Assembly: GCA_048939015.1 (NCBI GenBank)
Contig: JBHLPW010000009.1
Coordinates: 25,495 to 89,494, forward strand
Direction: 5' to 3'
Length of the DNA: 64,000 nt
From: Promethearchaeota archaeon
GTDB taxonomy: Archaea > Asgardarchaeota > Lokiarchaeia > Sigyniarchaeales > SOKP01
Position numbers and translations under genes: made by a program. Within the stretch, counting starts at the first letter, position 1; the number at the start of each line of letters is the position of its first letter. Shown here piece after piece: positions 45,484-50,933 of this stretch. The notes below the pieces were generated by a model. It saw nothing but the letters and a program-made list of their open reading frames with translations, was not told where the DNA came from and made no database searches.

Positions 45484-46404
45484 ATGAATTTTATCGAAGA
45501 TTTAATTCAACTAATTACAGAAAAAAGAAGTGTTGTTTGTATGGGACTTGATCCCAGAATGGATAATGAGGGTGAGATCCCCAAATATTTAATTGAAGAA
45601 CTAAAAGAACCAAATAAAATCATTCTAGAATTTAATAAAATATTAATTGAAAATACTTATGATTTAATTCCAGTTGTTAAACCTCAAATAGCTTTCTATG
45701 AAAAATATGAAGCTTTAGAGGCATTAAAAGAAACTATAAAATTCGCCCATAAGAATGATCTATTAGTAATTCTAGATGCTAAGCGAAATGATATAGGAAG
45801 TACTTCTGAAGCTTATGCTTATTCTGTATTTGAGAATTTTAAGGTAGATGCCTGTACTATAAACGCATATCTAGGTTATGATGGTGTTAAACCTTTTTTA
45901 AGTTATAAAGAAAAAGGCTTATTTATTCTTGTAAAAACATCAAATCCAAGTAGCTCTGAATTTCAAGATTTATTTAGTATAAAATTAGATAATGTTCCTA
46001 GCGATTTTATTGAATTTAGAGTAGAAAATAAGCTTTTAAAGAGAAATTATATCCTACTTGCTGAGTTAATAAACTCCTGGAGTAATGATTTAGAAAAATT
46101 TTCAAATTTCACTAATTTAGGAGTTGTTATTGGGGCAACTTATCCTAAAGAATTAAAAAAAATTCGAGAAATTGTAGAATATTCTTTTATATTAATTCCC
46201 GGCTACGGAGCTCAAGGAGCACAGGCGAAAGACATTAAAAATGGCTTTTACAGTAATGGTTTAGGTGGCGTTGTAAACTCATCCAGAAATATCATTTATG
46301 CATATAATAAAAATAAACAGTATTCTCAAGAAAATTTTGGAAGAGCTGCTAGAGATGAAATTGTTAAAATGAGCGCCAAAATCAACAAAGAAATAAATAT
46401 TTAA
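45484..46404 (+). CDS. pyrF: Orotidine 5'-phosphate decarboxylase
   Basis: CMGLDP, KPQIAFY, ILDAKRNDIGST, KTSNP, LIPGYGAQG, NSSR. Confidence 0.95.
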   Translation: MNFIEDLIQLITEKRSVVCMGLDPRMDNEGEIPKYLIEELKEPNKIILEFNKILIENTYDLIPVVKPQIAFYEKYEALEALKETIKFAHKNDLLVILDAKRNDIGSTSEAYAYSVFENFKVDACTINAYLGYDGVKPFLSYKEKGLFILVKTSNPSSSEFQDLFSIKLDNVPSDFIEFRVENKLLKRNYILLAELINSWSNDLEKFSNFTNLGVVIGATYPKELKKIREIVEYSFILIPGYGAQGAQAKDIKNGFYSNGLGGVVNSSRNIIYAYNKNKQYSQENFGRAARDEIVKMSAKINKEINI

Positions 46405-46408
46405 CTTT

Positions 46409-46825
46409 TTAAAAAGTCCCTCCTAGACTTTGACCAAGATTGATCATCGCTGTTATAATTGGACCTACAACAAAAATCATAACGACAACAGATCTTTTTA
46501 ATCCAACTCTATGAAGTAGATTTATAATATTTACATCTATAAAAACAGCAAAGAAAATTACTAACATTATAATTCCTGGATCTCCCTGAAATCTCCCAAT
46601 CATCCCATATAAAATTAAAGGGGAACCAATGAAAAAGATGACTCCAAATTGAATAACCCAGCTAAATGCCACCCATTTTAAATTCTTTTTTACTTGAGCT
46701 TTAGTAATAGCTAAACCAATTTTTAAAAATAACATATCAAAAAGTATTAATAGTACAGCGCTAATAATTAAGCCCATTTGTGCTCCAACAGGAATTCCAA
46801 TTTGAAATAACACAAATCTCACCAA
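46409..46825 (-). CDS. Small four-TM membrane protein
   Basis: Hydrophobic segments; the true start may be a downstream GTG (MLFQ...). Confidence 0.6.
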   Translation of the reverse strand: MVRFVLFQIGIPVGAQMGLIISAVLLILFDMLFLKIGLAITKAQVKKNLKWVAFSWVIQFGVIFFIGSPLILYGMIGRFQGDPGIIMLVIFFAVFIDVNIINLLHRVGLKRSVVVMIFVVGPIITAMINLGQSLGGTF

Positions 46826-46999
46826 ATAGACAATATTATTTAGATTTTAAAATTTCAATTTATATTTATAATAATTTTTAACTATAAGAAACATTTTATT
46901 AAAACAATTTAAACTTAATTAATTAGTACAGATTTACATCAATATCTGAATAACGGAATTGGAGGAAAAATAAGAAGAAAGGAATAAAGGTAATATGCA

Positions 47000-48979
47000 A
47001 TGGTAGAAACTAAAGACGAAACAGTTCAATATGATGAAGAAACACCTAGGATTGCTGTATTTATATGCCAATGAGGAATAAATATTGCTGAAATAATAGA
47101 TACTAAAGCATTAACAGAATTCTCAAAGACTCTTCCAAATGTTGTAGAAGTATTTGATTATATCAGTCTTTGAACCGAACCCGGTGCTGAATTTATTAAA
47201 GAAAAGATGATTGAAAGCAAAGCAAATAGATTAGTTGTTGCATCTTGTACTCCTAAGACTCATGAACCTGTATTTAAAAGTGTTTTAGAATCAATGGGTA
47301 TTGATTCTTCCTATTTAGAATTTGCTAATATACGTGAACATGCTAGCTTTGTACATAAAAAGGATAAAGCAGGAGCTCAAAGAGTAGCAGAAGATATAAT
47401 GCGATCCGCAGTAGCAAGAGCTTCAGTTTTAGAAAAAATCTTAATTAAAGAAGTCGATATAACAAAAAAAGCTTTGATAATCGGTGGAGGTGTAGCAGGT
47501 TTATCTGCAGGAATTGATCTAGCTGAAGAAGGATTTGAAGTTCACTTGGTTGAAAAAAGTCCTACTATAGGTGGAAAGATGGCTAAATTAGATCGTACAT
47601 TTCCTACAGATGATTGTAGTATATGAATACTGGGACCAGTTATGCTTCAAGCGGCAAGAACTCCAAATTTAAATTTATATACATATAGCGAAATTGAAGA
47701 AGTTTCTGGATTTGTTGGAAATTTTAAAGTAAAAATAAGAAAAAACGCACGATATGTGAATAATGATTGTAATGGATGCGGTGCCTGTTTTGAAGTCTGT
47801 CCTGCTTATGGTTATAATGAATTCAATGAAGGAATGGATTCAAGGAGAGCTATATATGTATCTTTTGCTCAAGCTGTGCCTTCATTAGCTCAAATTGATA
47901 TGACTCGTTGTATAAAATGTGAATTATGTAAAGGAGTATGTGAAGTGGATGCAATAGATTTTGATCAACAAGATGAAATAGTAGAACTAAATGTAGGGGC
48001 AATTATTGTTGCAACTGGCTGGGATGAGTTTGAACCACCGACGGGATATTTAGGATATAATAAATATCAAAATGTGATAACTCAACTAAAACTTGAAAGA
48101 ATGTTGGCTCCAAATGGACCTACTATAGGGCATTTAGTAAGACCTTCAGATGGAAAAGAACCAAAGAAAATCCTGTTTATTCAATGTGTCGGTTCAAGAG
48201 ATTTGAATATGAATACATATTGTAGCTCGGGAGTTTGTTGTATGATTTCAATAAAAAATAGTAAATTAATTAAACAACATTACCCAGAGGCAGATATCAC
48301 AGTTGCCTATATGGATATGCGAGCTGCCGGGAAAGATTACGAAGAATATTTTACACTCTCAAGGAAGGAGGGAATTAAGTATATAAGAACAAATGTGAGT
48401 AGAATTAAAGAAGATCCTAAAACGAATAATCTAAAAATCGTAATACAAAATACCTTAGGTTCTGAAGGATTAAAGGAATTAGAATATGACCTTGTAATAC
48501 TTTCGGCATCGATGGTTCCAGCTAAAAATGTGGATATAGTCCAAAAAATGCTTAAACTAGAAACTAGTCAAGACGGATTTTTTAAGGAATTTCACGCTAG
48601 ATTAAATCCTATTGACACTAAAATTCCTGGAATTGTTCTAGCAGGAGTAAGTCAAGGTCCAAAATCAATCGTAGAATCTATAGCTCAAGGGCGTGCAGCA
48701 GCATCTTCTCTTGCGCGATTAATGGGTAAAGATAAGTATCGTATTTTACTAATTCGGGCAACAGTTAATAAAGAAAGATGTGCTAAATGTGGGTTATGTG
48801 AGTTTAATTGTCCCTATAACGCGATAACTCTTATGAGTGATGGAGCTGAAGTAAATGAAATATTGTGTAGGGGTTGTGGATCCTGCCTGGCTAATTGTCC
48901 TTCTGAAGCGATTACTCTTAGATACTATAGAGAACCTCAATATGAGAAACAAATAGATGCTATATTAGAAGAGATTTAG
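47000..48979 (+). CDS. hdrA: Heterodisulfide reductase subunit A, selenoprotein with three in-frame UGA (codons 25, 58, 209); 659 aa
   Basis: Single frame from ATG 47000: RIAVFICQ*GINIA (TGA 47072), DYISL*TEPG (TGA 47171), FPTDDCSI*ILGP (TGA 47624). Each TGA aligns with a conserved HdrA Cys. Also GGGVAG FAD motif, CVGSR/YCSSGVCC and two ferredoxin domains. Confidence 0.93.
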
Positions 48980-48980
48980 A

Positions 48981-48987
48981 GAGGTGA
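48981..48987 (+). promoter_or_regulatory. Shine-Dalgarno-like site of mvhD
   Basis: GAGGTGA 7 nt before TTG 48995. Confidence 0.65.
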
Positions 48988-48994
48988 AAAAAAA

Positions 48995-49474
48995 TTGTCA
49001 GATACTTCAAATGGAGATATTAAGATATTAGCCTTCCTCTGTTGGAAATGAGGTTATGGAGCGGGAGACATGGCTGGAACCATTAGAGCTCAATATCCTG
49101 CTACTCTTAGACCGATAAGGATTAATTGCTCTGGTAGAGTTACCCCCTCTTTGATGATGAGAGCAATAGGGAAGGGTGCTGATGGAGTTGCTATTGGAGC
49201 TTGATATCAAGGCGAATGTGATTACGAAACTGGTAATTTAGTTGCTGAAAGGAATGTAGCATATACTAAGGAAATATTAAAAACAGTTGGAATCTCACCA
49301 GAAAGGATTCAAATGTTTCATTGTAGTGCTGCTGAAGGTCAAAAGTTTCAAGATGAAGCAACACGAATTTCAGAAAAGATCAAAGAATTGGGTAGCAATC
49401 CATTAAAAGATTCAAATTCCTCTAAAAATGAGAAAAAAGAATCAAAAAACATTAAAAAGAAAAAAACCGAATAG
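48995..49474 (+). CDS. mvhD: MvhD/VhuD [2Fe-2S] hydrogenase/Hdr adaptor subunit, selenoprotein with two in-frame UGA (codons 19, 70); 159 aa; absent from the ORF track
   Basis: MSDTSNGDIKILAFLCWK*GYGAGDMAGTIRAQYP...INCSGRV...GADGVAIGA*YQGECDY...ERIQMFHCSAAEGQKF...IKELGSNP; TGA at 49049 and 49202; TAG stop at 49472. Confidence 0.92.
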
Positions 49475-49513
49475 TATGACCTTTTCAATAAAATTTTAGT
49501 TGAATTGGGACTG
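49472..49513 (+). promoter_or_regulatory. Candidate eukaryote-like SECIS element (kink-turn core AUGA/GA, A-rich apical loop)
   Basis: UAG-U-AUGA-CCUUUUCAAU-AAAAUUUUA-GUUGAAUUGG-GA-CUG, folded by eye. Confidence 0.6.
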
Positions 49514-49634
49514 ACCTTGCGAAGGTTTCGGATTTGATTTTATATTTTTAAAATTTTATATCTTTCTTTTAACTTTTTTTATTTTAAAATTAAATTTTTA
49601 ACATAGTATTAATTTTAATTGATGTGAGTTTAAG

Positions 49635-50933
49635 ATGGGGAAAGATATTAAAAAACAGTTAATGAAAGCAGAACAGCTTGATAAAGCAATGCAATATAAA
49701 CGAGCTGCAAAACTATTTAATACAGTTGGAAATGAATTTCTGAAATTAGGTGATATTGAACGTGCAAAAGATTGTTTTTTTAATGCAGCTAAATGTGCCA
49801 TAAATGAGGATAAATACGTAAGTGGCTTAGAATTTTTAAGATCTGCAGGGAATGCCTCCCTAATTACAAATGACTTCTCAGAAGCTTTTCAATTTTACAC
49901 AAAAGCACTAAGTTATGTTCCTAGTTTACATAGTTCTTCAGATCGTGATTATCAATTTATTTTGTTTTCATGTTTATCTTACCTATGTTTATTTATAGAG
50001 GGAAAACAAGAGGAAGGTCTTAATTTAGTGAAAAAAATTAAATCTTTTGTAGATGATACCTATTTTAAAGAGAATTCCCTAATTAAACTGATTAAGGATT
50101 TAACAGTTGCGACAAAAGATAAAAAAGAAAATTATCTGAAAAAAATTGAAAATGATTTTGAAAATTTTAAATTTCAAGAAGGCGAAAGTTATCTGACTAA
50201 ACTCGCATTAGTATTGGCAAAATCTATTTTGAATTTAAAAACCGAATCGATGTTTGATAAGAATGTATACACAACTAATGATATTATAAATTTTAATATC
50301 AATATTGATACAAAACCTCTATTAGATATTTCAAAAAATTCTTTTTATAACTATCAGATAAAGGAATTGCAAATATCTAAAATAACAATAACGTTGTCTG
50401 ACAATTTTACAACCCATAAAAAACCAGAATTCCCAATTACAATTAAAGCAGGTCAGAATTATCAATTGAATCTTCTTTTTAAGCCTCATTTTCAAATGGA
50501 AAAACCCTTTATTGGACCTATTATCTTAACTTCTGAATTAAATGGGAATTTAAAGTTTTATTATGAAATTCCTGAAACTTTTTATCCAAATTTAATATCT
50601 CCTCCACCTACATTAGATATTTCAATAAAAAATTTGAGACCTCCTCTCATCGGTCAATCATTTCCTTTAGAAATTTTAATAGAAAATAAAAGTGAAGGAG
50701 ATGCCTTAGATCTTAATATAGAGGTGGAATTTCCTGAAAAACTTAAAGTAATGAGAGGTACATTGAAAAAACAAATATATTCATTAAGATCAAATGAAAA
50801 TATGAAATGGGAAATTAATATCAAACCACTTGAAGCTGGAGATTACTCTTTTAAAGTAAAAACGATGTTTAAAGATCCAGATCAAAATCAAATTGGTGAA
50901 ATTAAAGATTTCCCCCTTTCAATAAAATTATAA
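49635..50933 (+). CDS. Hypothetical protein: TPR/SNAP-like helical N-terminus + Ig-like beta-sandwich C-terminal domains
   Basis: AAKLFNTVGNEF..AKDCFFNAAKC helical repeats; C-terminal 'FPLEILIENKSEGDA..L.IEVEFP...WEINIKPLEAGDY'. Confidence 0.6.
   Translation: MGKDIKKQLMKAEQLDKAMQYKRAAKLFNTVGNEFLKLGDIERAKDCFFNAAKCAINEDKYVSGLEFLRSAGNASLITNDFSEAFQFYTKALSYVPSLHSSSDRDYQFILFSCLSYLCLFIEGKQEEGLNLVKKIKSFVDDTYFKENSLIKLIKDLTVATKDKKENYLKKIENDFENFKFQEGESYLTKLALVLAKSILNLKTESMFDKNVYTTNDIINFNINIDTKPLLDISKNSFYNYQIKELQISKITITLSDNFTTHKKPEFPITIKAGQNYQLNLLFKPHFQMEKPFIGPIILTSELNGNLKFYYEIPETFYPNLISPPPTLDISIKNLRPPLIGQSFPLEILIENKSEGDALDLNIEVEFPEKLKVMRGTLKKQIYSLRSNENMKWEINIKPLEAGDYSFKVKTMFKDPDQNQIGEIKDFPLSIKL

Follow-up and report, generated by a model that had tools for sequence, protein, structure and literature searches.

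The lokiSECIS was described in HdrA-VhuD gene pairs of Lokiarchaeota by Mariotti et al. 2016 (PMC4989117), where the operon was also published. It was defined as an AUGA motif, a 9-bp stem, an 11-nt loop with an A-rich start and an AG end, and a following GA (or AA), the last base of the loop being an invariant G that usually has an A before it (PMC4989117). The same study proposed that HdrA and VhuD share one element, which is located behind VhuD/MvhD and acts over about 2 kb. This shared-SECIS idea was extended to Asgard archaea generally by Huang et al. 2024 (PMC11227280), who use the term type I eSECIS-like structure of hdrA/frhD. The Loki-type SECIS is a proposed evolutionary link between archaeal and eukaryotic Sec decoding, and no claim of long-range recoding is more extreme than that for HdrA-VhuD, with one element, two cistrons, and up to six UGAs. 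In Methanococcales and Methanopyrus, the VhuD SECIS has the form AUGA ... GAC/AAC with a short extra stem, and an hdrA gene neighboring VhuD has a SECIS of its own (PMC4989117).

Here, we analyze an hdrA-mvhD gene pair in a 64,000-nt stretch of DNA, referred to below as the window. The element found behind mvhD at 49465..49533 has all sequence and position features of the published lokiSECIS; by these features it is that element, and the reading of it as shared by two genes is already known.

The hdrA-mvhD gene pair and its in-frame UGA codons

All coordinates are window positions on the + strand, and UGA was read as Sec for translation. Translation and Pfam comparison place hdrA at 47000..48979 (659 codons, with the stop codon UAG at 48977–48979). 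Its translation contains three in-frame UGAs, at 47072–47074 (U25), 47171–47173 (U58), and 47624–47626 (U209). When the product is aligned with the solved HdrA structure 5odc_A (E = 4e-205), a Cys lies opposite all three UGAs, and the UGA positions recur across related loci. We infer that Sec is inserted at these hdrA codons. As read from the sequence, a 15-nt intercistronic gap (48980..48994) follows; it contains the Shine-Dalgarno–like sequence GAGGUGA at 48981–48987, and the UUG start codon of mvhD is located 7 nt further. The mvhD/vhuD gene (48995..49474) has 159 codons, ends with UAG at 49472–49474, and matches the Pfam family FlpD (PF02662, E = 1e-42). Translation reveals two in-frame UGAs in mvhD, at 49049–49051 (U19) and 49202–49204 (U70), and both lie opposite X positions, presumably Sec, of the solved VhuD structure 9sfi_K. 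The count of five in-frame UGAs given in the earlier note, the first of them about 2.4 kb upstream of the AUGA motif, is thus confirmed, the exact distance being 2404 nt. In the genome from which the window is derived, the tRNA-Sec gene adjoins SepSecS. This genome, of a Lokiarchaeia-type Asgard archaeon, falls into one GTDB genus with MAG bin108, a Promethearchaeota (Lokiarchaeota) chromosome.

Two oligo-T tracts can be read in the sequence downstream of mvhD (49545..49580), T5 at 49545–49549 and T7 at 49574–49580, and such tracts are present only 3′ of the complete element. Oligo-T tracts are known to terminate archaeal transcription, and those observed here are likely termination signals. 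The presence of a Shine-Dalgarno sequence in the 15-nt gap and of oligo-T tracts only after the element fits a single transcript, and hdrA and mvhD are presumably co-transcribed.

Conserved sequence blocks were also observed 5′ of hdrA in 66 loci, corresponding to window positions 46870–46940 and 46960–46966. They comprise UUUUUAAC, UAUAAG-AAACAUUUU, and AUUUAAA(C/U)UUA-UUAAUUAG, and a conserved GGAGGA is located ~35 nt 5′ of the hdrA start codon. The blocks, which include a Shine-Dalgarno–like motif, probably represent a promoter or operator, possibly with a binding site for a regulator.

A Loki-type SECIS element at the 3′ end of mvhD

The element at 49465..49533 covers the last three codons of mvhD and is recognized by both a covariance model, R1 (see below), and the minimum free energy (MFE) fold as a three-way junction. 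Its basal helix, P1, is formed by CCGA (49467..49470) and UCGG (49528..49531). Above P1, a short C-stem pairs UAG (49472..49474), which is the mvhD stop codon, with CUG (49511–49513). The 5′ side of the kink-turn–like core (49475..49479) consists of the bulge UAU (49475–49477), G49478, and A49479, so that AUGA occupies 49476–49479 and begins 1 nt after the mvhD stop codon. With GA at 49509..49510 on the 3′ side, the core forms the tandem nonstandard pairs G49478.A49510 and A49479.G49509. All of these features, from the C-stem at the stop codon to the tandem pairs, had been placed correctly in the earlier note.

The SECIS stem proper, P2 (49480..49508), is a 9-bp helix supported by covariation and closed by an 11-nt apical loop. 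It is formed by CCUUUUCAA (49480–49488) and UUGAAUUGG (49500–49508), with seven standard pairs and two U-U mismatches that are common to many close relatives. The apical loop, UAAAAUUUUAG (49489–49499), has an A-rich start and an AG end. An upper stem of 10 nt had been proposed initially; nine of its positions and the two U-U mismatches stand, but the tenth pair, U49489-G49499, is not conserved, since in 48 relatives an invariant G faces U, A, or G at position 49489. This leaves a stem of 9 bp and a loop of 11 nt. On the 3′ side of the C-stem, a side hairpin, P3 (49514..49526, ACCUU-GCG-AAGGU), is supported by covariation and by RNAalifold. Linkers of 1, 0, and 1 nt connect the three helices at the junction. 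For the window sequence, the MFE fold contains all three helices and has an energy of −13.6 kcal/mol. This folding energy alone is unremarkable compared to shuffled sequence (z = −1.3 to −1.5); the support for the element comes from conservation and covariation.

The comparison used 80 related hdrA-mvhD loci found in Asgard MAGs. Sec codons are present in both genes of each locus. The loci share ancestry, so that counts across them overstate independence. The covariance model R1 was built from 48 distinct copies of the element (alignment A1), and alignments A2 and A3 were fitted to the model. A first, strict pattern that demanded a paired first stem pair found the element in about 50 of the 80 loci. 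The remaining ~30 were missed because a non–Watson-Crick pair is located beside the G.A pairs in these loci, as can be seen with the covariance model. Using R1, exactly one strong match (54 to 87 bits) was found per locus in 80 of 80 loci, always directly behind mvhD. In the whole 64-kb window, the sole R1 match is 49465–49533 (81.2 bits, E = 4e-18). We also searched with a minimal descriptor consisting of AUGA, at least seven of nine pairs, an 11-nt loop with at least three A’s among its first five bases and an AG end, and then GA. On both strands of the 4.86-Mb genome, this descriptor produced five matches, four of which lie behind UGA-containing genes; on the reversed genome, it produced none. 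The match is thus far beyond chance.

The core motifs show little variation. AUGA is present in 78 of the 80 loci and GUGA in the other 2, while the 3′-side GA and the C that follows it are invariant in the 48 sequences of alignment A1, as are, within the loop, AAA and the UAG at its end. The G-C pair of the C-stem is invariant as well (48 of 48), its middle pair covaries (AU in 28, UA in 8, and UG in 3 sequences), and its outer pair is often unpaired. In P2, both-sided changes were detected in eight of nine pairs with 48 sequences and in all nine with 78 sequences, and the covariation score was 0.42 and 0.38, respectively, compared to at most 0.11 when the strands were slid out of register. 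The first P2 pair is often non–Watson-Crick in relatives, as at kink-turn position 3b.3n, and the geometry of a 9-bp stem with an 11-nt loop is kept in nearly all of them. The comparison of mvhD 3′ regions that had been suggested as a check of the element thus reveals a conserved AUGA/GA core and covarying P1, P2, and P3 helices.

One of the loci contains, in addition, a weak R1 match (L028:4423-4496, 17.7 bits) located ~900 nt downstream of the genuine element. This match keeps the loop, P3, and UCGG, lacks AUGA, and looks like a decayed SECIS copy.

A probable shared element for two cistrons

The two mvhD UGAs are located 274 and 427 nt from the element, and those of hdrA lie 1.85 to 2.4 kb from it, beyond the hdrA stop codon. 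It is likely that 49465–49533 is the sole SECIS of a bicistronic hdrA-mvhD mRNA, is of the Loki type, and serves the UGAs of both cistrons. If hdrA had a signal of its own, either a bacterial-type hairpin in the coding region or a SECIS in the 5′ untranslated region (5′UTR), the element would serve mvhD only. We consider this improbable. The conserved sequence upstream of hdrA and the fact that our searches were tuned to the Loki-type element, R1 and the descriptor detecting only elements of this type, are compatible with such a signal, but several lines of evidence argue against it.

R1 had no match inside hdrA or in ~1 kb upstream in the 80 related loci, and in a filter-free scan of window positions 46300–49700, nothing besides the element exceeded 7 bits. 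The minimal descriptor was also run over the hdrA-mvhD sequence located upstream of the mvhD 3′ end, 249 kb in total, and had no match there. An Rfam scan of 46500–50000 at E ≤ 10 returned no SECIS family and only three chance-level matches to unrelated families. A coding-region hairpin after each UGA was considered and rejected: in a crude test, synonymous-codon entropy in the 15 codons after each Sec codon did not drop (z = −0.4 to +2.3). Low-entropy windows at both gene ends fall in poorly aligned variable tails and were left uninterpreted. A 5′UTR SECIS was rejected on the basis of RNAalifold, which gave no consensus structure for the hdrA leaders of 65 loci, and the conserved blocks found there resemble promoter and Shine-Dalgarno motifs. 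The search for SECIS-like folds in hdrA and its 5′UTR that the earlier note had recommended thus returned none by R1, the descriptor, Rfam, or RNAalifold.

The space between the genes and the choice of stop codons point in the same direction. Lengths of 13 to 16 nt are the commonest class of hdrA/mvhD gap among 73 related loci, and such a gap, 15 nt in the window, is too short for a separate hdrA SECIS, as had been argued before. The hdrA stop codon is UGA in none of 73 loci. In mvhD, by contrast, UGA is the first in-frame stop in 19 of 81, and this UGA often belongs to the AUGA itself. This pattern fits an element that recodes a distant upstream UGA and not an adjacent one; the missing UGA at the hdrA stop is hard to explain if hdrA relied on its own signal.

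The genome from which the window is derived has four Sec-type hdrA-mvhD pairs (contigs C70, C32, C76, and C21), each with one element after mvhD, and no element match was found at the Cys-type pairs on C6, C78, C113, C59, and C46. Overall, the element is the sole SECIS detectable for both cistrons, and its shared use, the central claim of the earlier note, is supported as far as sequence comparison goes.

Paralogs of hdrA and mvhD are found in this genome on contigs C6, C46, C59, C78, C113, and C32. They include at least four Sec-type pairs and at least five Cys-type copies or rearranged hdrA forms, and the two types of paralogs provide a natural comparison set within one genome.

P1 and P3 form a covarying three-way junction with the SECIS stem

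In P1, 99% of cells are paired in both the 48- and the 78-sequence sets, and a compensatory change to GCGA/UCGC is found in locus L069. The core of P3 is conserved in 80 of 80 loci, with the variants CCUU/AAGG, CCAU/AUGG, and CCCG/UGGG; 94% of its cells are paired, the pair at alignment columns 55/64 is AU in 22, UA in 19, and CG in 3 sequences, and a G in its loop is invariant. The unguided RNAalifold consensus contains all three helices. Behind other selenoprotein genes, the sequences of P1 differ and stay complementary (CCCC/GGGG, CUGA/UCAG, AAUCCCAA/UUGGGAUU, AUAUCAA/UUGAUAU, and GUUGGUU/AACCAAC), with four of four pairs changed on both sides and 96% of cells paired. In a multi-family alignment, which was fitted to the model, both-sided changes were detected in four of four P1 pairs and five of five P3 pairs; across the alignment, 88% of cells are paired, with a covariation score of 0.66 compared to at most 0.16 when the strands are slid. 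We also tested P1 without any alignment, by comparing duplex energies of cognate and noncognate flanks; none of 5000 permutations matched the real pairing. Most elements reach the junction fold without constraints. The element is thus a covarying three-way junction, in which P1 encloses coexisting P2 and P3.

This architecture bears on a second alternative, put forward in the earlier note, in which a downstream hairpin overlapping the 3′ arm of the SECIS stem competes with it and toggles recoding. In the window, 49503–49508 could indeed weakly pair with 49532–49536. However, the core of the proposed hairpin is P3, which coexists with P2 in both the MFE fold and the RNAalifold consensus and is enclosed together with it by the covarying P1. 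The pairings that would have to be added are weak (−5.5 kcal/mol, z = −0.3, compared to −13.6 kcal/mol for the three-helix fold) and use unconserved bases: the extension needs positions beyond 49533, where 3 of 70 columns are conserved at ≥0.9. Since only the three-helix fold is conserved and covaries, there is no sign of a switch; the competing hairpin was rejected, and a toggling role is very improbable.

The main text of Mariotti et al. 2016 and that of Huang et al. 2024 describe the hairpin, the core, and a short lower stem, and make no mention there of P3 or P1. A full-text literature search returned no paper on a junction or a second hairpin for the lokiSECIS.

The same element behind other UGA-containing genes

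When the whole genome was searched with R1 at E ≤ 1, eight matches were found, and eight genomes of the same genus yielded 6 to 11 matches each at E ≤ 0.01. These elements follow vhuU, paralogs of mvhD, two Prx-like genes, and several uncharacterized small open reading frames (ORFs) that contain UGA. The Loki-type element is thus associated with UGA-containing genes. That the structure is mainly a 3′-end stabilizer or a terminator hairpin with no role in recoding, as its location at the operon 3′ end just ahead of the oligo-T tracts might suggest, is extremely unlikely, given that the architecture, with an AUGA...GA that does not vary, recurs behind UGA genes of unrelated families, small membrane proteins included, is absent behind Cys-type paralogs, and, as judged by the descriptor, marks almost only UGA-containing genes in this genome.

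On contig C21, the element was missed by R1 and found by eye at ~114040–114130, downstream of the Sec-type pair at 111628–113995. It consists of AUGA, a stem of 9 bp, a loop of 12 nt with AG at its end, and then GA; its P1 is AUGUGUU/AACACAU, and the sequence polarity of its P3 is reversed (AUGG...CCAU). Even where the sequence diverges, the architecture is thus kept.

Several of the small ORFs merit a description of their own. The first, on contig C121 of the same genome (L084:1242-1496, + strand), encodes an 85–amino acid (aa) predicted membrane protein with an in-frame UGA in a GGGGUGC motif. It is followed by a three-way-junction SECIS with the P1 helix CUGA/UCAG, has relatives in L098 and L101, and has no Pfam match. 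Huang et al. 2024 (PMC11227280) list seven Asgard selenoprotein families, and the protein is in none of them. The second, on contig C12 (L085:1566-2030, − strand), encodes a protein of ~155 aa with two adjacent UGAs (HAD-U-U-ADV) and is followed by a SECIS hairpin and a longer side hairpin; orthologs are found in L116 to L118, L120, L121, L123, and L128, and a Pfam search of this ORF gave no match either. The third, on contig C13 (L088:1589-1744, − strand) and also found in L114, is a 52-aa zinc-ribbon–like ORF with weak Pfam zinc-ribbon matches. Its UGA is located in TN-U-C (TN-U-U in L114), a second UGA lies just before the stop codon, and a SECIS-like junction is present 3′. Last, small ORFs with one UGA were found in two same-genus genomes (L100 in G008 and L107 in G006) and in L092, L096, L109, and L112. 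They are Gly/Asp-rich or membrane proteins with motifs such as CDLPI-U, IIG-U-GII, and LP-U-TPEW, each is followed by a three-way-junction SECIS, and they are possible unlisted selenoproteins.

A model for recoding from a shared element

In the model that we favor, the element in the 3′UTR would recruit the Sec-specific elongation factor with Sec-tRNA(Sec), either directly or via a putative kink-turn–binding adaptor. The factor would then be handed to ribosomes at any UGA that is located far enough upstream on the same mRNA, those of the first cistron included. Ribosomes meet the first hdrA UGA 72 nt from the start codon, and the SECIS is transcribed 2.4 kb later; in this model, either pioneer ribosomes would terminate at the first hdrA UGA or translation would lag transcription. 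SBP2 is reported to be absent from Asgard genomes, and only two genes of the L7Ae family or L7Ae fold were found in the genome studied here. Tentatively, P3 with its invariant loop G could form, together with P1, a docking platform for an archaeal SECIS-binding factor and in this way enable service of two cistrons over 2.4 kb, a possibility to which we attach considerably less weight than to the shared element itself.

The junction alters the choice of RNA for search models, reporters, structure work, and protein pull-downs. It is also a possible reason why the element was missed by the tools tried in PMC4989117, where existing SECIS tools were reported to fail on Lokiarchaeota genes, and by the Rfam models here, whose blank result agrees with that report.

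Comparison with known systems

The earlier note had called the element eukaryote-type. What holds of this description is a eukaryote-like element with a kink-turn–like core: as in eukaryotic SECIS form 1 (Rfam SECIS_1, RF00031), the site is in the 3′UTR, the core is AUGA/GA, the apical loop contains unpaired A’s, and the element would act at a distance on UGA codons. What does not hold is membership of a eukaryotic family, since neither RF00031 nor a related model matches the window element even at E ≤ 10. Compared to eukaryotic SECIS, the upper helix is shorter, with only 9 bp above the core, and the stem of 2 to 3 bp below the core leads into a three-way junction instead of a continuous helix I.

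The kink-turn consensus, namely, the U-A-U bulge, the tandem G.A/A.G pairs, and the invariant G-C closing pair, is present in the sequence and makes the core a candidate kink-turn. A 3-nt bulge and tandem G.A pairs at a three-helix junction are also found in the k-junction of the TPP riboswitch (Wang et al. 2014, PMC4005666). In the k-junction, however, the C helix and the third helix share an axis at the turn itself, whereas in the window element the G.A pairs and the junction are kept apart by a C-stem of 2 to 3 bp.

The VhuD SECIS of Methanococcales and Methanopyrus resembles the window element in the orthologous gene and the position behind it, in AUGA on the 5′ side and GAC on the 3′ side, and in having two distant UGAs to serve. 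It differs in having retained the euryarchaeal GAA_A bulge and G-C pairs (PMC4989117). The euryarchaeal SECIS is defined by the GAA_A bulge, then 2 to 3 G-C pairs and a small loop; by inspection, neither the bulge nor the G-C run is present in 49465–49533. Selenoprotein P mRNA is similar in that several UGAs are decoded at long range from 3′UTR signals. It has one cistron and two SECIS elements (PMC4989117), in contrast to the window operon, where two cistrons, separated by a stop codon and a re-initiation site, would share a single element.

The closest system remains the lokiSECIS, from which the window element differs in nothing in kind. The position at the VhuD/MvhD end, the single element per gene pair, and the very short intergenic gap are alike, and so are the multi-Sec HdrA and the absence of UGA as its stop codon. 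The three-way junction refines this known element and does not make it a new kind of system. The window adds no new principle; it provides a further clean instance of the lokiSECIS operon, together with an independent and larger comparative confirmation from 80 loci.
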